The position numbers were made by a program, and so were the translations under genes. The notes below the pieces were generated by a model. It saw only the letters and a list, made by a program, of their open reading frames with translations. It searched no databases and was not told where the DNA came from. From an uncultured Candidatus Babeliaceae bacterium (GTDB lineage Bacteria > Babelota > Babeliae > Babelales > Babelaceae): 64,000 bases of DNA. The stretch covers positions 576,001-640,000 of the forward strand of contig OY969927.1 of NCBI GenBank assembly GCA_963704655.1. The letters run 5' to 3'. This document shows positions 1,059 to 61,314 of the stretch, piece after piece (positions within the stretch are counted from its first letter, which is position 1; each line of letters opens with the position of its first letter).

Positions 1059-2540
1059 TTAACAAACAACGCGTTTTTCGTCGATTGCACTTTTGTATGT
1101 TTTACCAAGATAAAGCGCTACAAAGAACCACATCGCAACCAATCCATAACCAAGAACTGATGCCATTAAAATATAATGTGATTTTCCAACTACATCACCA
1201 AAGACTTTTTGTAATGGTTTGAGCGACATGTTAAATATCGATCCAACTTCTTTAGATCCGCGTGAACCGAATACTTCGATCCATGCTTGAGATTTAAAGC
1301 GAACATCATGAGTTGTTGGGATATAAAGCTGTTTCATAGCAGGACCATTAAGCGCATAGTTAATCGCTTTAGAACCAACCATAAGCCAGAACAAGAATGT
1401 TAAGCTATCAAAGGTAATAAATCCAGTAATTGCACCAGCTACAATAATAGGCATCATAACTAAAGCAACGCCTACGCCAAGTAAACGAGTGATATTACTT
1501 ACACCAAGCAATAAGCAGATCAGTGAAATAATATTAACATATGAACCATATTGACCAAGATACGCATCAAGATCACGGCCTACATAGTGAGTACTTGCAA
1601 GAACTTTGAAATTGAAATCAAAGATAGTAACAATAATCTCATAGCTAGCGATAGCTGCAAAGATGCCCATCAAATACCTATGGCTTAATAATAATTTTAA
1701 CCCTTCAAGGAATCCTGGCTCTTGCTCTTTTTCAGCAGCAGCTTCGTTTTTACCATGAAATGAAGCAAGTAATGCTTTAGGCGTAACTTTTAAGAAGTTT
1801 TTGATTAAAACACCTACTAAACCAATGCTAATTGCGCATACAAAGAAAGAAATTGCACTGGTTGTTTTTAAATATGCTGGAACAAATTGCGCAAATGACA
1901 CTAAAGATGCACCAAAAGGCTTTAAATAATTAGGAATGTTATCAATACTTTCAAACTTTTGTAAAGTCTGTGCTATTGGCGTAACAAACATTGGCCCGAT
2001 GATACCACCAAATTGGCCAATTGCGGTAACAAGATAGAACCCTTTTTTTGCAGAGTTTGAATCTGTTGTATCAGAAGCAAAAGCCCAAAACAATGCCACA
2101 ACCAATGAGCCATAGCTTTCAACAAAAATATAGATCACATAACCCAAAACTTTTGTTAAGTAATATTCAGCGCCTGTATATGAAGCAATAGTTGCTGCAT
2201 CAGCCTGAAATTTACATAATAACAGACCAAATAATAATGCACCACCGGCATAAATAGTTGAAAGAATATAGAACATCTTCTCACGAGAGTATCTGTCCAT
2301 AAGCTTTGTGTAGAACATAACTAATGGGAAAAGCAAAAACAATGAAGCTGTTTTAGCCCAAGGAATATCATGCTTGCTCACAAGATTTATAAAAACTGAA
2401 TCTTTTAAAACGCGAAGTGTCCAATAAGAGCCAATAATAAGAGCAAAAATTAGACCCATACGGAGGAATTTCTTAAACTCTTCTTTTTCAAACTCGCCAA
2501 AAATTGGTCTGAAAATATACTGTAACGCCGGAAGTATCAT
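1059..2540 (-). CDS. NTT/TLC family ATP/ADP (nucleotide) translocase
   Basis: Motifs YWTLRVLKDS, LFWAFA, KAINYAL...KQLYIP, K.Q.WIEVFGSRGSK; about 12 TM helices; likely start MILPAL at 2540 (ORF extends to 2633). Confidence 0.9.
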   Translation of the reverse strand: MILPALQYIFRPIFGEFEKEEFKKFLRMGLIFALIIGSYWTLRVLKDSVFINLVSKHDIPWAKTASLFLLFPLVMFYTKLMDRYSREKMFYILSTIYAGGALLFGLLLCKFQADAATIASYTGAEYYLTKVLGYVIYIFVESYGSLVVALFWAFASDTTDSNSAKKGFYLVTAIGQFGGIIGPMFVTPIAQTLQKFESIDNIPNYLKPFGASLVSFAQFVPAYLKTTSAISFFVCAISIGLVGVLIKNFLKVTPKALLASFHGKNEAAAEKEQEPGFLEGLKLLLSHRYLMGIFAAIASYEIIVTIFDFNFKVLASTHYVGRDLDAYLGQYGSYVNIISLICLLLGVSNITRLLGVGVALVMMPIIVAGAITGFITFDSLTFLFWLMVGSKAINYALNGPAMKQLYIPTTHDVRFKSQAWIEVFGSRGSKEVGSIFNMSLKPLQKVFGDVVGKSHYILMASVLGYGLVAMWFFVALYLGKTYKSAIDEKRVVC

Positions 2541-2741
2541 ACAAAAGTCCTTTTTGTAGGTAAAAAATAAAAAAAGTTTCATATTTATATTACTACGCGA
2601 TTTTTCTTTTGTAAAACTAAAAAACCCGCTCATTTACGTATCAATTTGCCTGTGATAGACTATCTTCATATGCACGATAGAACCCTACCGTAAACTACGC
2701 CGTACCTACGTGTTATAACCTGCGTGTGGAGAATTTAATCT

Positions 2742-38998: not shown

Positions 38999-40135
38999 AT
39001 GCAACTTTCTGCACTTATTATGTATCTTCCTTTTATCTTAGCTGGCGCCTTAGGTTTTGGATTTCTTGTTGGCTTTCATGAGCTAGGCCATTTTCTCTTT
39101 TGTAAGCTCTTTGGTGTAAAGACCCCTTCATTTTCTATTGGCTTTGGTCCACAACTTCTTAAAAAGAAGATTGGTGATACCATATTTACCCTTTCCGCTC
39201 TCCCTTTTGGCGGGTATGTTGAAATCGCGGGCTCGGAAGAACCTGGTCAAGGCGAACAAAAAGAAAGCAAAAGTACCGCTCCAGATTCTTTTGCCATTAA
39301 ACCTTATTACCAAAAAATGCTCATTATAGCTGGTGGCATCGTATTTAACTTAATCTTTGCCTATATAGCCGTTACGCTCGCGTTTATTCTTGGGGCGCCA
39401 AAAACACCACTTTTATTCCCCAATAGCGCAACATCCGACATCGAGACACTTGTAGAAGATTCAGCTGCTGCCCATGCAGGACTTGTTGTGGGCGACACTA
39501 TTGAAGGGATCAAAGCTGGAGATGAACTTTATGAGCTTACCAAGCTTCCTTTACCCGTCTTTATGCAAAAGCTCATGCAAACACTCAGCGCACAGCGTGG
39601 CAAAGAGGTTACCTTACGTATTACCCATCACGAAAGTTCCGAAGTTTCTACAACTCGTGACGTTACGGTAACATTAGGCGATAAAGGCCTTGGTGTTTCA
39701 TTCGAATTTCTCCCGGTCAAAGCAAGCAGCTTTATGCAAGCGCTTCAAATGGGTATTAAGCAAACTAATTTCTGGATCTTTTCAACCATAGATGCATTAA
39801 CCAAGCTTTTTAGAGAAAAATCGGTTAAAGGTATCGGCGGGCCGGTTATGGTTATTAGCCACATGGTCAAAGGCGCAGAAAAGGGTTTTGTAGTCTTTCT
39901 GCTCTTTTTAGCATTTATCTCCGTTAACCTTGCCGTTATGAATCTTATCCCATTACCGGTCTTTGATGGTGGTCAAGCACTTTTTTACACTATCGAAGCA
40001 ATAATGGGCAGACCGCTCCATGAAAACATCAGAAATGGCATTGCCTATGCAACGTGGGTGCTCTTATTAGCGCTGATCGTTTGGATTACCATCCAAGACA
40101 TTTTAGTTCTTGCCAAACCCTATTTTGGTTTATAA
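38999..40135 (+). CDS. rseP: Intramembrane metalloprotease RseP (M50)
   Basis: HELGH, FSIGFGP, PDZ-like segment, NLIPLPVFDGG. Confidence 0.92.
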   Translation: MQLSALIMYLPFILAGALGFGFLVGFHELGHFLFCKLFGVKTPSFSIGFGPQLLKKKIGDTIFTLSALPFGGYVEIAGSEEPGQGEQKESKSTAPDSFAIKPYYQKMLIIAGGIVFNLIFAYIAVTLAFILGAPKTPLLFPNSATSDIETLVEDSAAAHAGLVVGDTIEGIKAGDELYELTKLPLPVFMQKLMQTLSAQRGKEVTLRITHHESSEVSTTRDVTVTLGDKGLGVSFEFLPVKASSFMQALQMGIKQTNFWIFSTIDALTKLFREKSVKGIGGPVMVISHMVKGAEKGFVVFLLFLAFISVNLAVMNLIPLPVFDGGQALFYTIEAIMGRPLHENIRNGIAYATWVLLLALIVWITIQDILVLAKPYFGL

Positions 40136-40158
40136 AATCTTTAAAAAATCTCTTATTT

Positions 40159-40182
40159 GGGGGCTTTTCTTGCCCCCTTTTT
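40159..40182 (+). terminator. Intrinsic terminator after rseP
   Basis: GGGGGC...GCCCCC-TTTTT. Confidence 0.65.
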
Positions 40183-40258
40183 CTTAAAACTCTTTATTTC
40201 ACACAACCTGATTAAGTATACTTAAAGTAATAAGTTATAATTTAAAAGAGAGTATACT

Positions 40259-41377
40259 ATGATATCAGCAAAAAACATTGCCCTTATTGTTGGGCTATTT
40301 ATAGCTTCAGCGCACCTATACTGCACAGAGAACACAAGAACACCTGAAGAAATACATGGCTATTATCTGAATCTGATCAATGAGGCTCAAGATCAAAACG
40401 ATTTGGGTGAAATTGATAACGCAAGAACACTTTATAACGAAATTATTACTACTCAAGAAGATATCCCCACTCAATTACGAAATTCAGCACGCCTTAAATT
40501 AGCCCAAATGCTGTTATACGGCTCCCCAAAAAGGCCTAATGAGGAAGAAACTGTGTATATTTTGGGACTTTTAAATGATATTGTTGAAAGCCCTCTTAAT
40601 CAAGTGGATATAAATGACTGGGCGCAAGCACATCTTATACTAGCAGACCTTTTATTGGCACACATTGATACATTGAAATTACAATCACCTGAGCATTATC
40701 ATGCAAACCTCGATTCTGCAATGGGGGATTATGTTTCTGTACTCGAACAACGACATAACTTAAAGCCGTGGATTGTTTATACTGCTGCAGTAAGATGCAT
40801 AGAGCTTGTTTATAACCATCCAATATTAACACAAAATATGCGTTCTAAGTTAAACTTTATGCTCGCTTACCGGTATATGGTCGATGCATATAACAATTTG
40901 TCAGATGAAGAAAAAGGAGATAGCACTATCCCTGGTATATTTGAGCTTAATACCATTCGAATTCATTATATACAACAACTTATAAAAGACGCTGACTATA
41001 CTCAGGCCCGTAAAGTATTAAACACTATTATTACAGCTCAAGATCCGAGCGTAGACCAAGCGACTAAAAACAAGGCTCGATTGCTTCTTGCTGAAACATT
41101 CACCATACAATCTAAATATACTCAAGCCCGTCAAATTTTAAACTATATTATTACTACTCAAAATCCAGAGGTAGATCAACCAACTAAAAATCGCGCACGC
41201 GTGATCCTGGCTGACATGAATCTACATGGCGAAGGATTGCCTAACAACGCGCCTGATATACCTGCAGCTAAAGAACTTTATAAAACAGTGGTAGAACAAG
41301 CTGAGATTAATATTATGGAAAATGACAAAAATAAAGCAGAACTTGCATTAAAGTTTATAAATAGGAAGAAGATATGA
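40259..41377 (+). CDS. Secreted TPR/Sel1-like helical protein, paralogue 1
   Basis: Signal peptide; C-terminal ARVILADMNLHGEGLPNNAPDIPAAKELY; internal 40-aa repeat. Confidence 0.75.
   Translation: MISAKNIALIVGLFIASAHLYCTENTRTPEEIHGYYLNLINEAQDQNDLGEIDNARTLYNEIITTQEDIPTQLRNSARLKLAQMLLYGSPKRPNEEETVYILGLLNDIVESPLNQVDINDWAQAHLILADLLLAHIDTLKLQSPEHYHANLDSAMGDYVSVLEQRHNLKPWIVYTAAVRCIELVYNHPILTQNMRSKLNFMLAYRYMVDAYNNLSDEEKGDSTIPGIFELNTIRIHYIQQLIKDADYTQARKVLNTIITAQDPSVDQATKNKARLLLAETFTIQSKYTQARQILNYIITTQNPEVDQPTKNRARVILADMNLHGEGLPNNAPDIPAAKELYKTVVEQAEINIMENDKNKAELALKFINRKKI
40997..41236 (+). repeat. Intragenic tandem duplication, 120-nt period
   Basis: YTQARKVLNTIITAQDPSVDQATKNKAR vs YTQARQILNYIITTQNPEVDQPTKNRAR. 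Confidence 0.8.
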
Positions 41378-42393
41378 AATTACTAAAACGCTTACTATCA
41401 TTAATGCTTCTCTTACTTGCTTATGCACCATCTGTTTCTTCCGCAGAAAGAACCATAACGCCACAAGAGCTTTTAGAACATTATAAGACTATGCTTGATG
41501 AAGCAATATGGCTAGATGGTGACAACAAAATCGATAAGGCCCGAGAACTCTATGAACGGATTATTTATAGCCCTTATCCATTGCCAATTTCTTTGCGTAC
41601 AAAAGCGGCTTATAATATGGCAGAGATGTTATACAATCAAAATAAAGTGCTAAAAACACCCTATAACAATATTATATATATTAGTGAACTGTTATCTTTT
41701 GTTACGAATGAACCTATTGAGACAATCGATTCAAACATCTGGGCTGATTCCCATCTTCTATTGGGCCAAATTGCTCTAGAAGGAGTGCTCACACCCGACC
41801 ATCAACCAGATGTTGCTTTTGCACGACAACACTTTTTTAAAATTTTTACCTTTAGAGCCAATCTAGACCCTTTGACTGTCTTTAAAGCTGCAATAACTTT
41901 GGCAGAGTATGTTTATGAAAATCCATCATTATTGGACCTTTATAGAATAAATATGTTGCTCGCTTACCGGTATATGATCGAAGCGTATGGTGCAACGCCT
42001 GACCACTATAAAAATGAAATCGATATGCCCGGTATCAACAAATATCCTATTGCTCGATTTCATTATGCACAGCAGCTTTTACAAGTGACTGGCATTTTTA
42101 ATAAAAGGGATAATTATATGCAAGCTCGCGAAATATTAAGCGATATCATAACCGTTCAAGACCCATATATAGATCAAAAAACTATAAACCGCGCACGGGT
42201 AATGCTTGCTGGCATGAATCTGCGTGGCGAAGGGTTACCTAATAATACGCCTGATATACCTGCGGCCAAAGAACTGTATAAAACCGTGCTCTCTCAGCCG
42301 AAAAATACTGTTATAAAAGAAGATATAACTAAAGCAAAAGTTGCACTGGATCTTATCAATCTGAATAGAAAACGAAAAAGAACAGAAGAATAA
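41374..42393 (+). CDS. Secreted TPR/Sel1-like helical protein, paralogue 2
   Basis: Signal peptide; WADSHLLL, AGMNLRGEGLPNNTPDIPAAKELY; ends NRKRKRTEE. Confidence 0.75.
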   Translation: MKLLKRLLSLMLLLLAYAPSVSSAERTITPQELLEHYKTMLDEAIWLDGDNKIDKARELYERIIYSPYPLPISLRTKAAYNMAEMLYNQNKVLKTPYNNIIYISELLSFVTNEPIETIDSNIWADSHLLLGQIALEGVLTPDHQPDVAFARQHFFKIFTFRANLDPLTVFKAAITLAEYVYENPSLLDLYRINMLLAYRYMIEAYGATPDHYKNEIDMPGINKYPIARFHYAQQLLQVTGIFNKRDNYMQAREILSDIITVQDPYIDQKTINRARVMLAGMNLRGEGLPNNTPDIPAAKELYKTVLSQPKNTVIKEDITKAKVALDLINLNRKRKRTEE

Positions 42394-42406
42394 AAAGGAA
42401 TAACTC

Positions 42407-43453
42407 ATGAAATTTCAAAAAAAATTACTATCGTTAATGCTTCTCTTACTTGCTTATGCACCAAATATATCATCAACAGAAAGAACCCAAACAGAACAAG
42501 AACTTTCAGACTATTATCATAATCTGCTTGAAGAAGCGATACTATTAGAAGAAAATGGAGGTATCGAGCAAGCAGAAGAAATATATAATGAAATCATTAC
42601 GAGTAACCAAGTACCAGAATTTTTACTCATTGAAGCATTAACCCACAAAGCAAAAATGCTCTATAATGCTTATGAGGGAAGCACTAATTATACGGAAAAA
42701 TTACCAAGCATTATTGAGCTTTTAAAAAATGTTGTTAACCACCCTGCAAAAGAAGAATATATACAATTTTGGGCAGAGGCGCATCTTTTATTAGCACAAA
42801 TATATCTTGATCTATTTGCAGAAAATAATGACCTTGCAAATATAAAATCAGCAATTAAACATTACGGTAGTATTTTAACAAGTCCCTTCACGATTGACCC
42901 AAAAATTACCTTTAAAGCAGCCCTTCATTACACTGAACTTGTCAATATATACTCTGATGATTTAGGTCTAAAAATTAATACTAGAATACCTTCAGAAATT
43001 ATGCTGGAAACATACTACAATATGATTCCACAAGAAGAAAGAAATAACGACATACCTTCCCAACTAGACCTTTTGCGTGTTCTGCTTCAAACAAAGCTTC
43101 GTACTGACCTTGCCATGGCCCAGCAACTTATTGTTTTACCACAGGTGAATAGCCCAATATCAAACGCTGTTCAAGCTCGTAAGCTATTAAATAACATTCT
43201 TATTGCTCCTTATAATGATTCATCAATCTTAAAAATCAAAAATCGAGCACGTCTTATTCTTGCCGGTATGAACTTACGCGGGCAAGGGCTGCCTAATAAT
43301 GCGCCTAATGTACCCGCTGCCACTGAGCTCTATCAGCTAGTCGCATCTCAACCAGAAGATTCAGTTATGAAAGGCGATAAAAATAAAGCAGCAGTTGCGC
43401 TGAATCTCATGAACCGCAATCAAAAACGCAAAAGAACAGAGATTGAAGAGTAA
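42407..43453 (+). CDS. Secreted TPR/Sel1-like helical protein, paralogue 3
   Basis: Signal nearly identical to paralogue 2; WAEAHLLL, AGMNLRGQGLPNNAP; ends QKRKRTEIEE. Confidence 0.75.
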   Translation: MKFQKKLLSLMLLLLAYAPNISSTERTQTEQELSDYYHNLLEEAILLEENGGIEQAEEIYNEIITSNQVPEFLLIEALTHKAKMLYNAYEGSTNYTEKLPSIIELLKNVVNHPAKEEYIQFWAEAHLLLAQIYLDLFAENNDLANIKSAIKHYGSILTSPFTIDPKITFKAALHYTELVNIYSDDLGLKINTRIPSEIMLETYYNMIPQEERNNDIPSQLDLLRVLLQTKLRTDLAMAQQLIVLPQVNSPISNAVQARKLLNNILIAPYNDSSILKIKNRARLILAGMNLRGQGLPNNAPNVPAATELYQLVASQPEDSVMKGDKNKAAVALNLMNRNQKRKRTEIEE

Positions 43454-43500
43454 TTCAGGCTCTGTTTTCCAATAAAGAAATACATAATTCAAAGATATAA

Positions 43501-43533
43501 AAAAAAGCCCCGATTATCTTCGGGGCTTTTTTT
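43501..43533. terminator. Bidirectional terminator, AAAAGCCCCGA family
   Basis: AAAAAAGCCCCGA-TTATCT-TCGGGGCTTTTTT. Confidence 0.85.
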
Positions 43534-43664
43534 ATAATAAGTGCTCAAAAGAATAATAATTAAAAAACTATATTTTCTTCAATATTTATGGCACTTTTGT
43601 TATAGTTAAATGACCGTTTACCAGTCGCACATAAAATATACACAACCAAAACAAAGGATGATTC

Positions 43665-44165
43665 ATGAAAAAACTTATTATGTTCACAAGCCTTTTATCG
43701 GTAAGTTCATTAATGATAGCAAAATCGACAGTGCCAACACCGCTAAAACCAGCGATAGTAGGTAAAGTTTACAGCACTTGCCAGCTCAAGCAATTGGAAA
43801 ATGCTGATAAACTCTGCGAACAAGGGAAGTTACTCGCCGCAGCGAAAGCGTTAGAAAATTTAAGCGTCGAAAAAAAGCATAAAAATAAGAAATTAAGAGA
43901 AATAGCGTCTGTGAAGTTATATTTGCTACGTAATGATGTTCGATATGTAGAACAAAAAGATTTAGAAAACAAAAAAATTGCTTCTCAGAGCAAGCAACTC
44001 TTGGGAAAATTAAATAAAGCACATGAGCTCGAACTTCAAGGCAAATATTCTAAAGCCGCTACACTTTATAAAGAACTCTCGCATGCGCCAAAACTTCACA
44101 TGGCAATACGAAACTCGGCAAGTCAGTTCCTAAATGAAATGCGCCAATCCGGACAAATTAAGTAA
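43665..44165 (+). CDS. Small secreted TPR-like protein (paralogue of 45855)
   Basis: MKKLI signal; ADKL...G.LLAAA, QGKYSKAATLYKEL. Confidence 0.7.
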   Translation: MKKLIMFTSLLSVSSLMIAKSTVPTPLKPAIVGKVYSTCQLKQLENADKLCEQGKLLAAAKALENLSVEKKHKNKKLREIASVKLYLLRNDVRYVEQKDLENKKIASQSKQLLGKLNKAHELELQGKYSKAATLYKELSHAPKLHMAIRNSASQFLNEMRQSGQIK

Positions 44166-44176
44166 TTTGAAACAAG

Positions 44177-44205
44177 AAAAGCCCCGAGAAATTCGGGGCT
44201 TTTTT
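44177..44205. terminator. Terminator, AAAAGCCCCGA family
   Basis: AAAAGCCCCGAGAAATTCGGGGCTTTTTT. Confidence 0.85.
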
Positions 44206-44252
44206 ATTATAATAACTACGCCAATACACCTATGAATAAATAAAAAAAGCTA

Positions 44253-44282
44253 TTGCCTCTTTAATATATTTTCACTTATACT
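44253..44282 (+). promoter_or_regulatory. Sigma70-like promoter of repeated leader
   Basis: TTGCCT-N18-TATACT; same layout at 46393, 46967 and 47518. Confidence 0.65.
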
Positions 44283-44321
44283 TAAAGTGCTAGGTATAAC
44301 AAATAAATATTAGGTGAATTT

Positions 44322-44702
44322 ATGAAAAACAAATTAATTATTTTAATGGGCCTTTTGAGCCTCAGTGTTCTCAATGCATCACAAGAACCCATTACCGTGG
44401 CATCGATCGCAGCTGCAAATAGACAATTTTTTTTGGGGAATCAACTCAGAAAAGCCGAAAACAGCACAACAAAAAAAGATGCACAAAAAATTGAAAAAAA
44501 AGAAAAACAACAAATAAAAGAAGCAAATCGCTTGACAGAGAGATTAGAGTCGGCAGATGAAAAACGCAAGAAGCATAAATATCCAGAAGCTGCCGCAATA
44601 TACCTAGAACTTAGTAGTAATTCTCAAGCCGCTTTCCATGTCATAACAGGCTTGGCCGCCCTGCACCTAAAAGAGATGCGTGATGCGGAACAAATTAAAT
44701 AA
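44322..44702 (+). CDS. Small secreted protein (MKNKL leader, TPR-like C-terminus)
   Basis: MKNKLIILMGLLSLSVLNA; KYPEAAAIYLEL...EMRDAEQIK resembles the end of the 43665 protein. Confidence 0.7.
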   Translation: MKNKLIILMGLLSLSVLNASQEPITVASIAAANRQFFLGNQLRKAENSTTKKDAQKIEKKEKQQIKEANRLTERLESADEKRKKHKYPEAAAIYLELSSNSQAAFHVITGLAALHLKEMRDAEQIK

Positions 44703-44734
44703 AAAAAGCCCCGAGAAATTCGGGGATTTTTTTT
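44701..44734. terminator. Bidirectional terminator, AAAAGCCCCGA family
   Basis: AAAAAAAGCCCCGAGAAATTCGGGGATTTTTTTT between convergent genes. Confidence 0.8.
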
Positions 44735-44751
44735 GCATTGTAAAAACCTGA

Positions 44752-45693
44752 TTATTTCTTCACGCTATTTTTCCAAAAGAAATTACTTGGCTTCTGGTTA
44801 TTTGGCCCCTCAAAATCAACAGGGTACAATATCCCTTTGTTTACGTGGTAATTTGGAGCGCTATTGTCCCATAAATTAGCATAATTTTTTACGATCTCAA
44901 ACTGACGTTTCATTTCAGGATCTTTCATGATCTCAGTATCATAAATGCTCCCTACAGCCCCAGCTATTGCACCACCAATGTTTTCTTCCACAATAACATA
45001 GTTGCCATCGCTTACTTCAGTCGGTCTGCCTGGAATATGAACTACATACATTTTTGGTAATCTAATGCGATCGAGGTTATATTTTTCAATTGCCTCTTTT
45101 ACCATTAACCAATAGGGCATACGGCTAATTGTTTGATACGTTTTCGGACCATAATCTTTAATAAATGCATCTAACTTCGCTTGCGGAAAATAGCGATCCT
45201 GATTGTCTGCGCCCATTTCATGTAATATATTTCCTCGCCTATTCCAATAACCAGCCGATTTTATCAACAAATCATCACCTAAACGTATCGTAAAATTTTG
45301 TATCATTGGATTTATACCCTGTGGCACTGCAGCCACTTGAATCCCCGCACGAGCTAAAGCTTGTCGCATTGCTTCAAAAAATAAGAGGTCCTGCGGCATA
45401 ATTTGATTAAAATTTATAGCATATGGAGCATGATTAGAAAAAGGTATTTTAGTATAATAGCTCTCACCAGAAAAGATGTATGCAAAATCAGGTTTCTGAG
45501 CAAAGAAATTCTGTACTTTTTGCTCGATATCTTGAGGAACCTTCGGGGCCAATTCTAAGATGTTCTCAGGCGTCATTGCCTGCCCATTATAGGTATAACT
45601 ACAATGAATATCGTTTGATTCTGCCGCGGCAAGATAACCAGGCAGCATTGCCGCCACTATTACAAGCAGCTGACTTATAGGTAAAATCTTCAT
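44752..45693 (-). CDS. Secreted protein with protein-kinase-like motifs
   Basis: Signal peptide; LLIK, RLPKMY, YVIVEENIGG, D-x4-N (DNSAPN), VDFE. Confidence 0.6.
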   Translation of the reverse strand: MKILPISQLLVIVAAMLPGYLAAAESNDIHCSYTYNGQAMTPENILELAPKVPQDIEQKVQNFFAQKPDFAYIFSGESYYTKIPFSNHAPYAINFNQIMPQDLLFFEAMRQALARAGIQVAAVPQGINPMIQNFTIRLGDDLLIKSAGYWNRRGNILHEMGADNQDRYFPQAKLDAFIKDYGPKTYQTISRMPYWLMVKEAIEKYNLDRIRLPKMYVVHIPGRPTEVSDGNYVIVEENIGGAIAGAVGSIYDTEIMKDPEMKRQFEIVKNYANLWDNSAPNYHVNKGILYPVDFEGPNNQKPSNFFWKNSVKK

Positions 45694-45854
45694 ACACTAT
45701 CTCCATTACTATTAATTATTTAACTTATTATTTTAATTATAATTGACAAATAGAAAATAAGGCAACAGAGTGGATTAAAAATGCAAATTTTGTGATAATT
45801 TTGCTATAATTTAAGGGATCAGAGGCGCATTAACCAAATCAAAACAGGAGATTC

Positions 45855-46349
45855 ATGAAAAAACTTATTCTTATTATGAGCTTATTATCTTTTTGCTCAT
45901 TACTTATAGCCAGAGCACCGGTTACTTTATTACCAAAGCCAACTATAATAGCTAAAAGTTGGAATGATTTATGGCGCAAAGAATTATACAAAGCTGATAA
46001 ATTACGCAAAAATGGAGATTTACTTGCCGCAGCTGAAGCTTATAAAGCATTAAGCGCAAATAGACAGCATAGAGATGAAGAGATAAGTTCTCAAGCGTTA
46101 AAGCGATTAAATCAATTACTTAACAATCCTGATTATTGGGAACAAAAAGAGTTAAAAGACAAAAAACATGCTGAAGAAGGCAAGCGGCTCATGGAAAAAT
46201 TTCAGAGCGCAGATACACTCAGGCAACAAGGCAAATATGCAAAAGCAGCCGCACTGTATGAAGAATTACAAAATGCGCCGTATCCTCACTACTGGGCACA
46301 AAGCTGGGCCTCTCGTCTTTTAGAAGAGATGCGTAAGTCCAAACTATAA
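45855..46349 (+). CDS. Small secreted TPR-like protein (paralogue of 43665)
   Basis: ADKLRKNGDLLAAA, QGKYAKAAALYEEL. Confidence 0.7.
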   Translation: MKKLILIMSLLSFCSLLIARAPVTLLPKPTIIAKSWNDLWRKELYKADKLRKNGDLLAAAEAYKALSANRQHRDEEISSQALKRLNQLLNNPDYWEQKELKDKKHAEEGKRLMEKFQSADTLRQQGKYAKAAALYEELQNAPYPHYWAQSWASRLLEEMRKSKL

Positions 46350-46392
46350 TATCCCCACCGACGGCACATCACAAAATAAACACACAAAACTA

Positions 46393-46422
46393 TTGCTTTT
46401 CAAGCATTATTATAACTATACT
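46393..46422 (+). promoter_or_regulatory. Sigma70-like promoter of repeated leader
   Basis: TTGCTT-N18-TATACT. Confidence 0.6.
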
Positions 46423-46470
46423 TAATGATATAGGTATAATAATAACCAAATAACTGTATTAGGAGAATTA

Positions 46471-46746
46471 ATGAAAAACAAATTAATGATTTTAGCTGGC
46501 CTTTTTAGCTTAAGCGCTCTCAATGCAATGGAACCAGTTGCCCATGAAAGAAAAGCGATGCTAGAAGCAGTTACTTTAGCTAATTTAGAAGACATCATCC
46601 AACAAGCCCAAGCGCTTAAAGAACTTGTAAAGCGTACTGATGAACTTCCTAGGTCAATTGCAGATGAAATAGATGCAGCCAGAAGTATGTTGGAGCGTCA
46701 AGTTGACTTGTTGCAATCAACGGCTAACCGGTATCCAAAGAATTAA
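46471..46746 (+). CDS. Small secreted helical protein (paralogue of 47596)
   Basis: MKNKLMILAGL leader; LVK.TD.LP...ANRYPKN. Confidence 0.72.
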   Translation: MKNKLMILAGLFSLSALNAMEPVAHERKAMLEAVTLANLEDIIQQAQALKELVKRTDELPRSIADEIDAARSMLERQVDLLQSTANRYPKN

Positions 46747-46749
46747 GTA

Positions 46750-46793
46750 AAAAGCCCCGACCCTTCGACAAGCTCAGGATGATCGGGGCTTTT
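46750..46793. terminator. AAAAGCCCCGA-family terminator with REP family A element in its loop
   Basis: AAAAGCCCCGA-[CCCTTCGACAAGCTCAGGATGA]-TCGGGGCTTTT. Confidence 0.8.
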
Positions 46794-46827
46794 CTTTGAA
46801 CTTATTTATTAGATGGATCCTAAAACC

Positions 46828-46920
46828 GCTAACCCTTCGACCCGTCTTCGCCAAGGCTACGCCGGGCAAGCAAGCCTTTAGTGCTGAGCCTGACGAAGCA
46901 TCAGGATGATCGGGGCTTTT
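46828..46920. repeat. Triple-nested REP-like element
   Basis: GCTAACCCTTCGA-[family B, 46841-46870]-CAAGC-[reverse family A, 46876-46900]-TCAGGATGA. Confidence 0.8.
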
Positions 46921-46966
46921 TACTATAATATCCGCACCAACACACCTATAAATATAAAAAAAGCTA

Positions 46967-46996
46967 TTGCCTCTTTAATATATTTTAACTTATACT
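46967..46996 (+). promoter_or_regulatory. Sigma70-like promoter of repeated leader
   Basis: TTGCCT-N18-TATACT, near identical to 44253. Confidence 0.65.
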
Positions 46997-47035
46997 TAAA
47001 GCGCTAAGTATAACAAATAAATAGTAGGTGAATTT

Positions 47036-47431
47036 ATGAAAAATAAATTAATGATTTTAATGGGTATTTTGGGCCTCAGTATCCTTAATGCAATTGAGCA
47101 CCTTGGAACTGTATATGAACCCATGTCAGCAGAGCATAAAGATTTTTTGAAACGGCAAGATTATCGTGAAATATTAAACCCTCATAGTGACACTTATGAA
47201 ATGAGCTTATCTCAGCTTTTAAGAAATGCGGATATGCTATCTGGTCGAAGCACCATGCGAGAAGGCGGAAGAGTCGTGCGTCCTACTTTAACAGCCGAAG
47301 ATCAACAAATTGCTCGAAACATATACGACTTTGTACTTTCTTCGCCTCAAGATACTATAACTTTCCCTACCATACATTGGGCAACAGAAGGGCTTGAGCA
47401 TTTAAATTCACGTACACGTACTTTGAATTAG
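47036..47431 (+). CDS. Small secreted protein (MKNKL leader, distinct payload)
   Basis: MKNKLMILMGILGLSILNA then a largely different mature region. Confidence 0.7.
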   Translation: MKNKLMILMGILGLSILNAIEHLGTVYEPMSAEHKDFLKRQDYREILNPHSDTYEMSLSQLLRNADMLSGRSTMREGGRVVRPTLTAEDQQIARNIYDFVLSSPQDTITFPTIHWATEGLEHLNSRTRTLN

Positions 47432-47517
47432 AAGATTGAGCAACTTAAAGAATTAACCAAATTTACTATAATATCCGCGCTAGCAGCGCACAGATAAAAT
47501 AAACAATACAAAAATCA

Positions 47518-47547
47518 TTGATTTATGATCATTATTTTAACTATACT
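47518..47547 (+). promoter_or_regulatory. Sigma70-like promoter of repeated leader
   Basis: TTGATT-N18-TATACT. Confidence 0.6.
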
Positions 47548-47595
47548 TAAAGATATAGATGCAATAATAACCAAATAACTGTATTAGGATAACTT

Positions 47596-47883
47596 ATGAA
47601 AAACAAATTAATGATTTTAGCTGGCCTTTTGAGCCTCAGTGTTCTTACTGCAATGGAACCATTACCCGAGCATGAGGCCAAAGTCGATTATGAAAATAGG
47701 GTATTACAAAAAATAGCCGAAATGGAAGACAATGCTCGAACACTTAGAGATCTTGTAAAGATTACTGATCGGCTTCCTAATGAAGTTGAAAATACATTGT
47801 ATACATTAGGGCAAATCAATGAAAAACTTGGATACCACATAAATAGGGTAAAAGAGTCTGCTAACCGATATCCAAAGAACTAA
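47596..47883 (+). CDS. Small secreted helical protein (paralogue of 46471)
   Basis: MKNKLMILAGL leader; ends ANRYPKN. Confidence 0.72.
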   Translation: MKNKLMILAGLLSLSVLTAMEPLPEHEAKVDYENRVLQKIAEMEDNARTLRDLVKITDRLPNEVENTLYTLGQINEKLGYHINRVKESANRYPKN

Positions 47884-47912
47884 AAAAAAGCCCCGAGAAA
47901 TACGGGGCTTTT
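47882..47912. terminator. Bidirectional terminator, AAAAGCCCCGA family
   Basis: AAAAAAAAGCCCCGAGAAATACGGGGCTTTT. Confidence 0.8.
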
Positions 47913-47928
47913 CTTTGATATTTGTTAA

Positions 47929-47972
47929 ATCCCTCGATACTTTCCCCTCCGGGGAACACTCGGGATGAGCGG
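47929..47972. repeat. REP-like family A variant with extended loop
   Basis: ATCCC-TCGA-[TACTTTCCCCTCCGGGGAACA]-CTC-GGGAT-GAGCGG next to the rplM stop. Confidence 0.7.
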
Positions 47973-47973
47973 G

Positions 47974-48405
47974 TTAGGCCGCTTTTGTAACTTGTGCTTG
48001 ATGTGGATGTTCCGCACCAGCATAAACTTTTAATTTTTTGATAACTGCATCAGCAAGTTTAGTTTTAGGAAGCATGCCTTTAACAGCCTTCATAATAATT
48101 TCTTCTGGTTTGCGCGCCATCATCTGTTCAGCAGTAAGGGATTTAAGACCGCCCATATAGCCGGTATACCACTCATAGGTTTTACCTTTTAATTTGTTAC
48201 CGGTAAATACCACTTTATTAGCGTTAACTACAATAACATAGTCGCCTGAATCAGCATGCGGTGTATATTGCGCAGTGTCTTTGCCACGTAAAATATCAGC
48301 AATCTCAGTCGCAAGACGGCCTACAATTTTACCTTTAGCATCAATAACACGCCATTTAGGGGTATGTTTTTCACTACGAAGAAAAAACGTTTTATTCATA
48401 TCCAT
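47974..48405 (-). CDS. rplM: 50S ribosomal protein L13
   Basis: W.VIDA...GRLA...LRGK, YTPH.D.GDYVIV, KGMLPK, HPHQAQ; likely start MDMNKT. Confidence 0.97.
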   Translation of the reverse strand: MDMNKTFFLRSEKHTPKWRVIDAKGKIVGRLATEIADILRGKDTAQYTPHADSGDYVIVVNANKVVFTGNKLKGKTYEWYTGYMGGLKSLTAEQMMARKPEEIIMKAVKGMLPKTKLADAVIKKLKVYAGAEHPHQAQVTKAA

Positions 48406-48563
48406 ATTAAGTACCTTAGAAAATAGTGCGCTCAGCGCATTATAGTGTGTTAAAAACACACCGCTTATGTTATACTGCTTAAAAACTTACGTGGGTATTA
48501 CTCACTGTATTAAAAAATAGCCATTCAGTCAACTACAAATAGAACTTTCCCTAAAGGGTTTTT

Positions 48564-50238: not shown

Positions 50239-50664
50239 ATGATAAAAAAACTAACATTTTTATTATTGTGCATGAATACACAAATCTTTACGTGTGAAAA
50301 AGCAGAGAAAGAAAGAGCTTTAACACTTCAAATTAAAAATCTATTAAGTGCCGGTGAAATGCCTAAAGAACCATTTAAACATTGGTGCAAGTTACACTTG
50401 AATACATTTAAAGAATCTAAGCATGAGCCCTTACAAACAATAGGTTTGACCTTAGAGCAAATACTTGCTGGCAGTATACCTAACCCACTGAGAGTCTTGG
50501 ACGAATTTAAAGAAGCAGCTAAAGTACATCATGATAATGTAGATATAAACACTGAAAAATTACCTTACATGCTCACTGAAGGGACAAAGTGGTATTTTAA
50601 AGATAGTTGGTTTTTTTCTTTATTCACAAGATCAAAAGGAAATGGGGATACGCATGAAAAATAA
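50239..50664 (+). CDS. Secreted hypothetical protein (paralogue of 50654)
   Basis: Signal peptide; IKNLL..G.MP...F..W...H...GTKWYF. Confidence 0.68.
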   Translation: MIKKLTFLLLCMNTQIFTCEKAEKERALTLQIKNLLSAGEMPKEPFKHWCKLHLNTFKESKHEPLQTIGLTLEQILAGSIPNPLRVLDEFKEAAKVHHDNVDINTEKLPYMLTEGTKWYFKDSWFFSLFTRSKGNGDTHEK

Positions 50665-51118
50665 ACTTTTATTATTTTATAGCTTACCAATACTATTTAT
50701 TTCTAATGACCTTAACTGTCCAATCAAATCGAAAAATAGCGTAAGCACTGCAAGCAAAAATACGCAAGCCACGTTACCAAAAAATGCACAAACTAATTCG
50801 CAAGAAGCTGTTATTATCGACGAGATAAAATCGCTTTTAGCCCATGGCAAAGTACCGAGTTTAAGCTTTAATGAATGGGTCGATACGCACACACCCATTT
50901 TATTAAAATCAGATAAGGATGCCGTCAAAAAACTAGGCGAAACCTTACAAGCAATACGCAAAGGGGACACTGCAAAAATAAGCGCCTTTAAAGTTCTTCC
51001 AAATTTTGAAAAAGCCGTACAAGAGTACGACTCAAAATTCCGCATCAGCATGCTTTCAAAGCCGATAATTATCGCAAAAGGGACCTACTGGTATTTCTCT
51101 GCGCCTAAGAAAAAATAG
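50654..51118 (+). CDS. Secreted hypothetical protein (paralogue of 50239)
   Basis: IKSLL..G.VP...F..W...H...GTYWYF; start MKNKLL. Confidence 0.68.
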   Translation: MKNKLLLFYSLPILFISNDLNCPIKSKNSVSTASKNTQATLPKNAQTNSQEAVIIDEIKSLLAHGKVPSLSFNEWVDTHTPILLKSDKDAVKKLGETLQAIRKGDTAKISAFKVLPNFEKAVQEYDSKFRISMLSKPIIIAKGTYWYFSAPKKK

Positions 51119-54080: not shown

Positions 54081-54141
54081 GTCACCCTGAGCGTGTCTCA
54101 GGGTCTTATTCGCTAACCCTTCGACAAGCTCAGGATGAGCG
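54081..54141. repeat. REP-like family A doublet
   Basis: Reverse copy GTCACCCTGAGCGTGTCTCAGGGT then ACCCTTCGACAAGCTCAGGATGAGCG. Confidence 0.78.
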
Positions 54142-59991: not shown

Positions 59992-61314
59992 TCATACTGT
60001 CTTCTTATTTTTCCCCAACCACCGATCCAGTATCACTGCAGCTGCCGAACGTACCGACAGATGGTTAAATGAAGAGAAACCCTCAAGTGGAACCAAGCGA
60101 TAATCGCATCGTTCCATCAATTCAGGAGTTAATCCCCTACCAGTGCCAAGCACAATCAAGACGGGCCGATCACAAGACCAGACCTTTTCTTGATCAAAAA
60201 AGGTAATCGATCCCGGATGAGTATCTGTTTTTGCCCCCGTAGCGACCAAAACAGGCGCTTTACCCTCACGCTGAGTGATCTGCGCGATAACATTTTCAAG
60301 GTTACTTTCTAATATAACATGGTTAAGTGCTTCATGACGATAGTTATTATAAGAAATTCCCGGACCCTCTTGCCAAAAGCCTAAAAGCGTCTTTACAATC
60401 GCCTGTTGATCAACAAGGGGGGTAACAATAAAATAATTTTTTAAACCGTATGTTATTGCAGAACGAGCAATATCATGAATATCAAGGGAGGTAACCGAAG
60501 TAGTACCAACTTTTGTGTTCACTTTATCTTCTGACACTAAAACTTCACTATGCATGAGTACCACATAATGATGCGGCAGATTTTTTTCCACCAGTCGTTC
60601 TTGCTCACTGGTAAACTCTGGATAACTTCGTACCCAATCAAAATGCTGCAACACCGATTCACGCGCAACCTCTTGCTGGCGCCAATCGGCAATAGCTTTA
60701 TGGTTCCCACTGCGCAGCAACTCAGGGACCTGGTGCCCTTTCCACTCAACAGGGGCAGTGTACTCTGGATAATCGACAAATGGCCCTGAAAAGGAATCCA
60801 ACTCAACCGACTCAGACTTACCAACTATAGCAGGAACAAAACGAAGCAGCCCTTCAAGAAAAACCATTGCCGGCACATCGCCACCCATCAAAACAAAGTC
60901 ACCGATTGAGACTATCTCATCGGCATATTCTGTTTCAATGCGCGCGTCCATGCCCTCATAACGCGCAGGCAGAAGCATCAAATGATCTTTTTCTTGAGCA
61001 TGCATGCGATCATAAATAGCGCGTAATGATTTTTGATTGAGTTTTTTTCCTCGAGGAGAAAAAAAGACCTTATACGCGCAACCATGCTGGGCTTCTATAT
61101 CAGTAACGGCGCGTTCGATAATCTCAGGCTTGATAACCATACCAGCACCATGGCCGAATGTAGGACCATCAATGCGCTGTTTAGGCTCTGCATAAGAAAA
61201 AAGATTATAGACATTCGTGTCAATGATGCGCTTTTCTCGAGCACGTTCCACCAAGCTTGTTGAAAAAAAAGGCTTATAGAGTTCAGGGAAAAGCGTAACA
61301 ACAGAGATTTTCAT
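59992..61314 (-). CDS. trmD: tRNA (m1G37) methyltransferase TrmD fused to a Tm1570-like SPOUT methyltransferase
   Basis: N-terminal TLFPE, RYEG.D.R, SIGDFVL.GG, YPEYT, SGNH; C-terminal TTSVTSLDIHDIARS..TYG, GTG.GL, FNHLSVRSAAAVILDR. Confidence 0.92.
   Translation of the reverse strand: MKISVVTLFPELYKPFFSTSLVERAREKRIIDTNVYNLFSYAEPKQRIDGPTFGHGAGMVIKPEIIERAVTDIEAQHGCAYKVFFSPRGKKLNQKSLRAIYDRMHAQEKDHLMLLPARYEGMDARIETEYADEIVSIGDFVLMGGDVPAMVFLEGLLRFVPAIVGKSESVELDSFSGPFVDYPEYTAPVEWKGHQVPELLRSGNHKAIADWRQQEVARESVLQHFDWVRSYPEFTSEQERLVEKNLPHHYVVLMHSEVLVSEDKVNTKVGTTSVTSLDIHDIARSAITYGLKNYFIVTPLVDQQAIVKTLLGFWQEGPGISYNNYRHEALNHVILESNLENVIAQITQREGKAPVLVATGAKTDTHPGSITFFDQEKVWSCDRPVLIVLGTGRGLTPELMERCDYRLVPLEGFSSFNHLSVRSAAAVILDRWLGKNKKTV

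Follow-up and report, generated by a model that had tools for sequence, protein, structure and literature searches.

We questioned how four small genes in the genome of an uncultured Candidatus Babeliaceae bacterium came to share one promoter, ribosome-binding site and signal peptide ahead of proteins that are otherwise very different. The genes lie in a 64,000-nucleotide stretch of DNA (the window, G000:C1:576001-640000) of the source genome, G000, which is a single contig of 1,298,077 bases with 38% G+C. They are referred to here as u1 to u4, are all on the plus strand (ATG at 44322, 46471, 47036 and 47596), and each lies 3' of a repeated block of 170-190 bp, as the original prediction made from this DNA had stated for all four. 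Two further small genes in the same row are termed A1 (the 43665 gene) and A2 (the 45855 gene). We consider it likely that the locus is a fast-evolving cluster of genes for exported proteins, in which the leader would have been kept alike by recombination between its copies, whether by gene conversion or by unequal crossing-over. The features concerned are as follows (aa, amino acids).

43665..44165, plus strand: gene A1, a family A member of 166 aa under a leader of its own, MKKLIMFTSLLSVSSLMIA (A1/A2 E 9e-27)
44206..44321, plus strand: u1 leader, non-coding, with boundary box ATTATAATAAC, TTGCCT-N18-TATACT and TTAGGTGA; type I, 37-nt spacing from -10 to ATG
44322..44702, plus strand: u1 gene, 126 aa, predicted signal peptide MKNKLIILMGLLSLSVLNA (44322-44378) and short family A payload
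44752..45693, minus strand: gene for a 313-aa putative exported protein without a family match, which breaks up the array and has three tandem paralogues in the congener G004
45855..46349, plus strand: gene A2, a family A member of 164 aa with leader MKKLILIMSLLSFCSLLIA and a stop codon overlapping the boundary box of u2
46343..46470, plus strand: u2 leader, non-coding; type II, 46-nt spacing
46471..46746, plus strand: u2 gene, 91 aa, predicted signal peptide MKNKLMILAGLFSLSALNA and family B payload
46922..47035, plus strand: u3 leader, non-coding; type I, 37-nt spacing
47036..47431, plus strand: u3 gene, 131 aa, predicted signal peptide MKNKLMILMGILGLSILNA and family C payload, without a terminator
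47465..47595, plus strand: u4 leader, non-coding; type II
47596..47883, plus strand: u4 gene, 95 aa, predicted signal peptide MKNKLMILAGLLSLSVLTA and family B payload, 43% identical to u2

The blocks share a common order, which runs from a boundary box A(C/T)TATAATA through TTG(C/A)(C/T)T-N18-TATACT and TAA(A/T)G to a TAGG motif and the signal-peptide codons (57 nt coding MKNKL(I/M)IL(M/A)G(L/I)(L/F)(S/G)LS(V/A/I)L(N/T)A). TTG-N18-TATACT, TAGG (7 nt 5' of the ATG) and MKNKL..L(N/T)A are present in four of four blocks, and the longer boundary pattern A[CT]TATAATA[TA]C[CT][GCA]C has four matches in the genome, all of them at these blocks. A promoter consensus scan rated three of the four blocks as promoter-like, with the TTGCTT of u2 falling under the -35 threshold; we infer that the promoter and the cleavage site function as read. 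By blastn, the blocks of u1 and u3 were 88.3% identical over 171 nt (E 2e-57), those of u2 and u4 81.4% identical over 188 nt (E 8e-44), and blocks compared across these pairs 72-79% identical over 121-154 nt. A repeat search likewise returned 139 nt at 91% (44240-44378 / 46954-47092) and 151 nt at 85% (46386-46536 / 47511-47661). The u1 and u3 blocks, previously described as near identical, are therefore alike, but at 88-91% and no more. With the blocks aligned, identity was 74-89% over the 57-nt signal-peptide part and 24-33% over the next 150 nt (ungapped, six of six pairs), and a sliding identity profile agreed, dropping right after the signal-peptide part, so the predicted abrupt divergence of the mature proteins past the cleavage site was borne out. 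At the other end, each block was expected to start after a terminator or stop codon, and this is what we found: u1 begins in the T-run of a terminator, u2 at the A2 stop codon, and u3 after a hairpin.

The leaders are of two types. Over the 34 nt 5' of the ATG, u1 and u3 were 91% identical and u2 and u4 88%, versus 50-56% for cross pairs. Between the TATACTTA motif and the ATG, u1 and u3 have 37 nt and u2 and u4 have 46 nt; counted from the -10 motif, the spacing is 37 nt in u1 and u3 versus 42-47 nt in u2, u4, the related metagenome contig L048 and G004A. The 37-nt spacing, corresponding to a 5' untranslated region (UTR) shorter by 9 nt, reads as a shared derived state of u1 and u3. Given that these two genes carry payloads of different families, the shared spacing together with 88-91% identity argues for gene conversion of the 5' module. 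The timing points the same way: orthologous DNA of G000 and G004 is 81% identical at rseP and 76% at the transporter gene, and u3 is 45% identical to its orthologue P0003 in protein, so the likeness of the u1 and u3 leaders appears far younger than the families. In residues, the u3 leader is alike to that of u1 at 15 of 19 positions and to that of P0003 at 12 of 19. The u4 leader may be a mosaic, as its codons 9-10 agree with u2 and L048, and codons 12, 14 and 16 agree with u1 and u3 against u2, L048 and G004A. A further hint of recombination comes from one 232-nt contig (run X4) of a ~90% identical relative, which would join a u4-like promoter to a u2-like gene (window 46448-46621 and 47516-47567); a 3-nt insertion fits the u2 orthologue P0007, and the joint is read from a single contig at depth 3.3 and 85% likeness.

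The process that we favour can be set out as follows. In this host-dependent diderm, the island between rseP and rplM would gather lineage-specific genes for small, mostly helical Sec-exported proteins, which would multiply by tandem duplication and then diverge fast. Four of the genes retain a common 5' module, made up of a sigma-70-like promoter, a Shine-Dalgarno site and a predicted type I signal peptide of 19 aa and long associated with each payload family, and the copies within the genome would be homogenised by homologous recombination, through gene conversion or unequal crossing-over. The conversion tract would be limited to the stretch where copies are alike; as such a tract ends where homology ends, the likeness would begin past the terminator or stop codon and stop at the cleavage site, giving the step in identity. 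The mechanism would be ordinary homologous recombination (recA is present in the genome), and the architecture has precedents.

The payloads were compared by phmmer searches of the mature parts against 11,646 six-frame open reading frames (ORFs) of the genome. The mature part of u1 matched A2 (E 5.6e-7) and A1 (E 1.3e-3), those of u2 and u4 matched each other (E 2e-6), and that of u3 matched only itself. At the present detection limit, this would give three families: A (u1, A1 and A2), B (u2 and u4) and C (u3). u1 is a short member of family A with ~40 middle residues missing, and no orphan, and the leader of A1 and A2, MKKLI(M/L)..., aligns with the MKNKL leader at about half its positions. 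Pairwise hhalign comparison of the A, B and C mature parts gave a probability below 1% in three of three cases, and in column-shuffle controls the score was reached by 4/40 shuffles for A vs B, 5/40 for A vs C and 20/40 for B vs C; with only 2-5 sequences per profile, missing similarity is weak evidence. Family A appears to be a remote relative of the neighbouring TPR-like genes, as it matched the N-terminal part of these neighbours (40259-43453 and relatives) with a score of 29.3 over 121 columns that none of 60 shuffles reached. Family C was borderline against the same neighbours (23.0 vs a shuffle maximum of 19.0), and with a pooled profile its match shifted region (18.9 vs 18.5). Family B was at background, its score being reached by 16/60 and 8/40 shuffles. 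Nothing in Pfam was above cut-off for u1-u4, A1 or A2; TPR matches below cut-off were weak (TPR_16, E 0.0022 for A2 and 0.011 for u1). Given the tie of family A to the TPR-like neighbours, part of the payload diversity would be ordinary divergence.

AlphaFold models of the two other families were unlike each other. That of family C (3 sequences; predicted local distance difference test, pLDDT, 80.2; predicted template modelling score, pTM, 0.74) consisted of compactly packed helices and one beta hairpin, and that of family B (2 sequences; pLDDT 77.6, pTM 0.38) was a single long helix over residues 24-91. The family C model had no Foldseek match at E <=0.001, and in a wide VIA fold search the best hit (Z 7.4) was to generic helical repeats, in the uninformative range. 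The C-termini of the TPR-like proteins (41374-43453) and of a 108-aa relative in G001 are basic tails (RKRKRTEE, QKRKRTEIEE, EKRKRED and RKKRRTE; L025:58-393; L016:582-908), which resemble nuclear localisation signals and would fit host-directed proteins.

We also assessed whether the leader occurs on other genes. Per-block blastn of the whole genome (word size 7) found no leader copies beyond the four, and ORFs starting MKNK[LIMV][LIMV] number five in the genome, namely u1-u4 and an unrelated one at 50654. The promoter pattern alone is more widespread: TTG-N21-23-ATACTTAA has 18 matches in the genome, of which 12 have an ORF within 120 nt, with 8 of these 12 outside the array. The sites are at 40218, 44253, 46393, 46967 and 47518 in the window and, in genome coordinates, at 479561, 541815, 779364, 1145626, 1212294 and 1296802, among others. 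Enrichment of signal peptides behind the pattern (6 of 8 vs a 50% background, by an over-lax rule) was not significant (p 0.14). A near-palindrome TACTT-A-AAGTA overlaps the -10 motif, with ~6 copies on both strands by eye versus ~1.4 expected (0.71 per strand), and may be an operator or regulon mark. TACTTAAAGTA was rejected as a perfect palindrome, as it is palindromic only around an unpaired central base.

Among relatives, the leader recurs on the same families. Family A with MKNKL is found in G004 and L048, family B in P0007 and family C in P0003. The G004 gene codes for 159 aa with MKNKLIALVGFLSLSALNA and stands between a related promoter (ATTGCTTTC...TATGCT) and a terminator of the kind seen here. 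P0007 shares 76% identity with u2 and has 18 of the 19 leader residues in common with it, and P0003 starts MKNKLIILASLLSFSALNA; both were seen as protein only. The recurrence of the same leader-payload pairs indicates that the pairs are old and stable. Family C is rare, with only three proteins found among 1.84 billion representatives in an exhaustive profile search, and the u3 protein found only itself in a word-indexed database. A protein search limited to the leader region gave two candidates, and an Atlas search with the u4 protein gave no usable match. The u4 search had matches in 3 of 41 related genomes including G000 (in G004 to the signal peptide only, in G028 weak). At the DNA level, the blocks had only short weak matches in 8 of the 40 other genomes of the family, those of the u3 block outside G000 being chance-level matches of 23-55 nt (41 family genomes searched). 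No leader was found outside the genus in a search of 41 related genomes. The exact leader-start pattern had ten matches in genome contigs, all in unrelated taxa and on unrelated proteins, and 28 loci in metagenome contigs, where only L048 is a relative.

Several explanations of the shared leader were weighed against recombination between copies. Plain divergence under selection, in which one duplicated ancestor retained a constrained promoter and signal peptide with no recombination, seems improbable. It would account for the finding that, in all orthologous and paralogous pairs, the signal peptide is more conserved than the mature part (18/19 vs ~72% for u2/P0007, 12/19 vs ~42% for u3/P0003, and 14/19 vs ~30% for u1/G004A), but not for a u1/u3 spacer and UTR that are 91% identical with a shared 9-nt length change when cross-type identity is 50-56%, nor for a u3 leader closer to u1 (15/19) than to its own orthologue (12/19). 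Capture of the leader, by which the promoter and signal-peptide module would have been recombined onto payloads of independent origin in a small workshop for new exported proteins, as has been proposed for the erp genes of Borrelia, is in our view unlikely. The mature parts of A, B and C lack robust similarity (by hhalign and shuffles), and the models differ between a compact bundle with a beta hairpin (C) and one long helix (B). On L048 (1,845 bp), an A2-like gene is followed by one that has a leader of the u2 type (82% over 102 nt) on a payload that resembles the C-terminal part of family A, not family B, although this payload match is weak (E 0.0011, probability 20%). In G002, family C stands under another leader. 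Set against capture are the remote relationship of family A to the TPR-like neighbours and the borderline one of family C, the small profiles that make lacking similarity weak evidence, and the presence of each leader-payload pair of this locus in a relative as well, with no capture event caught. A more novel reading, that the block is a portable 'express-and-export' module put before unrelated or newborn frames in the rseP-rplM island, is rather unlikely. If true, it would mean that new periplasmic or host-directed proteins are tried without evolving regulation and targeting afresh, by a mechanism like that of erp, working with a non-lipoprotein leader in an uncultured and unrelated phylum that depends on a host.

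A dedicated and active shuffling or cassette system, with site-specific, high-rate re-pairing as in integrons or phase-variable surface loci, is very improbable. Three unit starts do share the boundary box ACTATAATATCC, 579 and 543 nt apart, each unit is counted for this explanation as having a terminator (u3 being without one), and island content varies between congeners. However, no recombinase was found in the window, and the genome has just two tyrosine recombinase genes (Phage_integrase family, at 389 kb and 530 kb), both at least 90 kb from the array at 620-624 kb. The 40 window ORFs scanned with NCBIfam and Pfam included no integrase or transposase, in agreement with the original prediction, which had no integrase in view; the scans showed housekeeping genes, and those named encode an NTP/NDP transporter, Lon, MurC/D, FtsW, RpoA, SecY, RseP, L13, YidC, RecR, TrmD and Ffh. 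There was no attC-like site in the window, the terminators were the only inverted repeats found, each unit has a promoter of its own, unlike integron cassettes, and the leader has four copies only, with none on other genes. In exact-match contigs from three runs, the order is unchanged across four junctions (A1/u1, A2/u2, u2 leader/payload and u3/u4), although these contigs are short and shallow (depth 2-4) and may stem from the source sample. The leader/payload shuffling first proposed therefore survives as a shared module before three families, marks of recombination and variable content, and not as a dedicated or active system, given old and stable pairs, four copies, and no recombinase or attC-like site.

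Recombination between copies remains our preferred explanation, although some observations weigh against it. At rplM, G000 and G004 are 91% identical, which means that the 88% of u1 and u3 is not above every orthologue, and strong selection on the promoter and signal peptide could explain part of the likeness. The mosaic reading of the u4 leader rests on ~5 informative sites read without a formal recombination test. The G002 family C gene has the leader MKKTFLTFLIFAFLNLTA and an unrelated upstream region, which fits divergence or replacement alike. Finally, the promoter pattern TTG-N21-23-ATACTTAA also precedes the eight genes outside the array, most of which have hydrophobic N-termini.

A locus-specific hairpin, AAAGCCCCGA...TCGGGGCTTT, is found 3' of the third TPR-like gene, A1, u1, u2 and u4. 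Most units were predicted to end in this hairpin, which is so for three of the four (u1, u2 and u4) and not for u3. The hairpins are listed below, all on the plus strand.

43500..43533, plus strand: terminator AAAGCCCCGA...TCGGGGCTTT after the third TPR-like gene, the first copy of the locus-specific hairpin
44174..44207, plus strand: A1 terminator hairpin; the u1 block starts inside its T-run
44701..44734, plus strand: u1 terminator hairpin
46750..46793, plus strand: stem of the u2 terminator, whose loop holds an inserted copy of a GC-rich repeat that is dispersed in the genome
46822..46920, plus strand: second hairpin, a longer composite GC-rich repeat whose right arm has the same sequence as 46774-46793, with the u3 block directly after it
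47882..47915, plus strand: u4 terminator hairpin, adjoining rplM; the same hairpin is at this site in G003

Nine intrinsic terminator sites were found versus 3.9 expected. Those at 43500, 44177 and 47886 have stems of 10-14 bp with 6 G-C pairs and are followed by T-runs, and the one at 44709 has a shorter stem of 7 bp, 5 of them G-C. The 22 Rfam matches were all on terminator hairpins and sub-threshold, with none at gathering score. Of the 12 genome matches to AAGCCCCGA (both strands counted), 9 lie within 43505-47888, which implies that the hairpin was part of what was duplicated here. As the same hairpin adjoins rplM in the congener G003, it would also be older than the array. The GC-rich repeat has the core CCCTTCGACANGCTCAGGATGA, with ~48 genome copies at <=3 mismatches of the 20-nt core, and its copies in the window are at 46750-46920 and 54116-54138. 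Each copy lies in the loop of a stem whose arms vary from copy to copy; the composite form (107 nt) has another copy elsewhere in the genome, and the repeat had no Rfam match.

The array forms the distal part of a hypervariable island between rseP (38999-40135) and rplM (47974-48459) with syntenic flanks and a content that differs in every congener examined (window 40135-47974 compared with L031, L074, L075 and L076). A comparison of array content between strains had been suggested at the outset; between congeners the differences are strong, with an island of 0.5-7.8 kb that holds from one gene (~0.5 kb) to ten (7.8 kb).

G000, 7.8 kb: three TPR-like genes, A1, u1, the 313-aa gene, A2, u2, u3 and u4
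G004, 7.7 kb: a 201-aa gene, the MKNKL gene of family A, three paralogues of the 313-aa gene, a further family A gene that is split, and a TPR-like gene
G001, 2.6 kb: three other genes
G003, ~0.5 kb: a single gene, cysteine-rich and of 76 aa
G002, split over two contigs: family C at one end and, at the other, a family A-like gene starting MIKNKLILL

The 313-aa protein (44752-45693, minus strand) had no Pfam or NCBIfam match; relatives of its gene are found once each in G001 and G002, in the same island. Elsewhere in the window, two adjacent paralogues of 141 and 158 aa with a 23-nt overlap (50239-51118), also without a family match, are both kept in G004 (60% and 32% identity). The TrmD ORF (59995-61314, minus strand) is 440 aa long and models cover its residues 1-239, leaving ~200 C-terminal residues unexplained.

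As to where the proteins go, the leader reads as a Sec type I signal: by eye it consists of MKNK, LIILMGLLSLSVL and NA, and the four 19-aa leaders and first mature residues hold no cysteine and hence no lipobox. A crude signal rule flagged 50% of all ORFs and was not discriminating. The genome encodes SecY, one signal peptidase I, two Omp85 proteins and two secretins, and a Sec-type leader in a diderm with Omp85 would support the periplasm at most as the destination. The designation of the products as secreted effectors thus went beyond the data, as the leader and Omp85 indicate the periplasm only. That the proteins pass through a secretin, or act on a host, is an idea drawn from the reduced genome and the nucleotide transporter. 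The gene for this NTP/NDP (nucleoside tri-/diphosphate) exchange transporter (1062-2633, minus strand) scored 81 bits, well below the model's 387-bit cut-off; in a 1.3 Mb genome it would point to nucleotide dependence on the host cell.

The locus offers a clean, small example of a reduced host-dependent bacterium diversifying its exported proteins, in which a regulatory and targeting module stays constant while protein bodies turn over, within an island that is different in every congener examined. If the leader were truly portable, it would provide a simple route to new exported proteins and a practical marker for such proteins in related uncultured genomes.

The locus works like the erp, SVM and vlp/vsp systems but belongs to none of them. 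In Borrelia, erp genes are described as having one promoter, leader and sorting sequence before many unrelated mature parts, with frequent recombination (PMC10016077). The erp genes of Borrelia burgdorferi (ospE/ospF/elp, with their 'upstream homology box') are the nearest precedent, the likeness being in architecture only. The conserved promoter and leader before divergent mature parts are found here too, but erp leaders are lipoprotein signals, whereas the leader here is a type I signal without a lipobox cysteine. The erp genes also sit at an allelic site on cp32 prophage plasmids, whereas the four copies here form one chromosomal array between rseP and rplM; no phage genes were found among the scanned ORFs, and the genome is a single 1.3 Mb contig. 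In phytoplasmas, the SVM signal is described as a conserved N-terminal motif on unrelated secreted proteins such as SAP11 and SAP54 (PMC8026896). One N-terminal signal on unrelated proteins in a reduced host-dependent bacterium is a shared trait, but u1-u4 had no match to PF12113 (SVM) at E <=0.1 in Pfam. Phytoplasmas are wall-less and carry such genes in potential mobile units, whereas this bacterium is diderm and the scanned ORFs held no mobile-element genes.

The vlp, vsp and vsa loci of Mycoplasma consist of tandem lipoprotein genes that are highly similar in their 5' regions and signal peptides but diverge in the mature parts; their products vary in size through repeats, and phase switching occurs through slippage at the promoter or inversion at specific sites. 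Their lipoprotein, size-variation and phase-switching features were not seen here. Integron cassette arrays resemble the locus in being a row of short one-gene units in a variable region, but they have intI, attC and promoterless cassettes, whereas this locus lacks both intI and attC, and its units each have a promoter-like site of their own. Concerted evolution of multigene families through gene conversion has been described in bacteria, for example, in a preprint on Mycobacterium tuberculosis antigen loci (PMC13061034). As in such families, stretches of paralogues are kept alike within a genome that has recA while the rest diverges; the difference is that the converted stretch here would be the regulatory and export module, and not the body of an antigenic protein.

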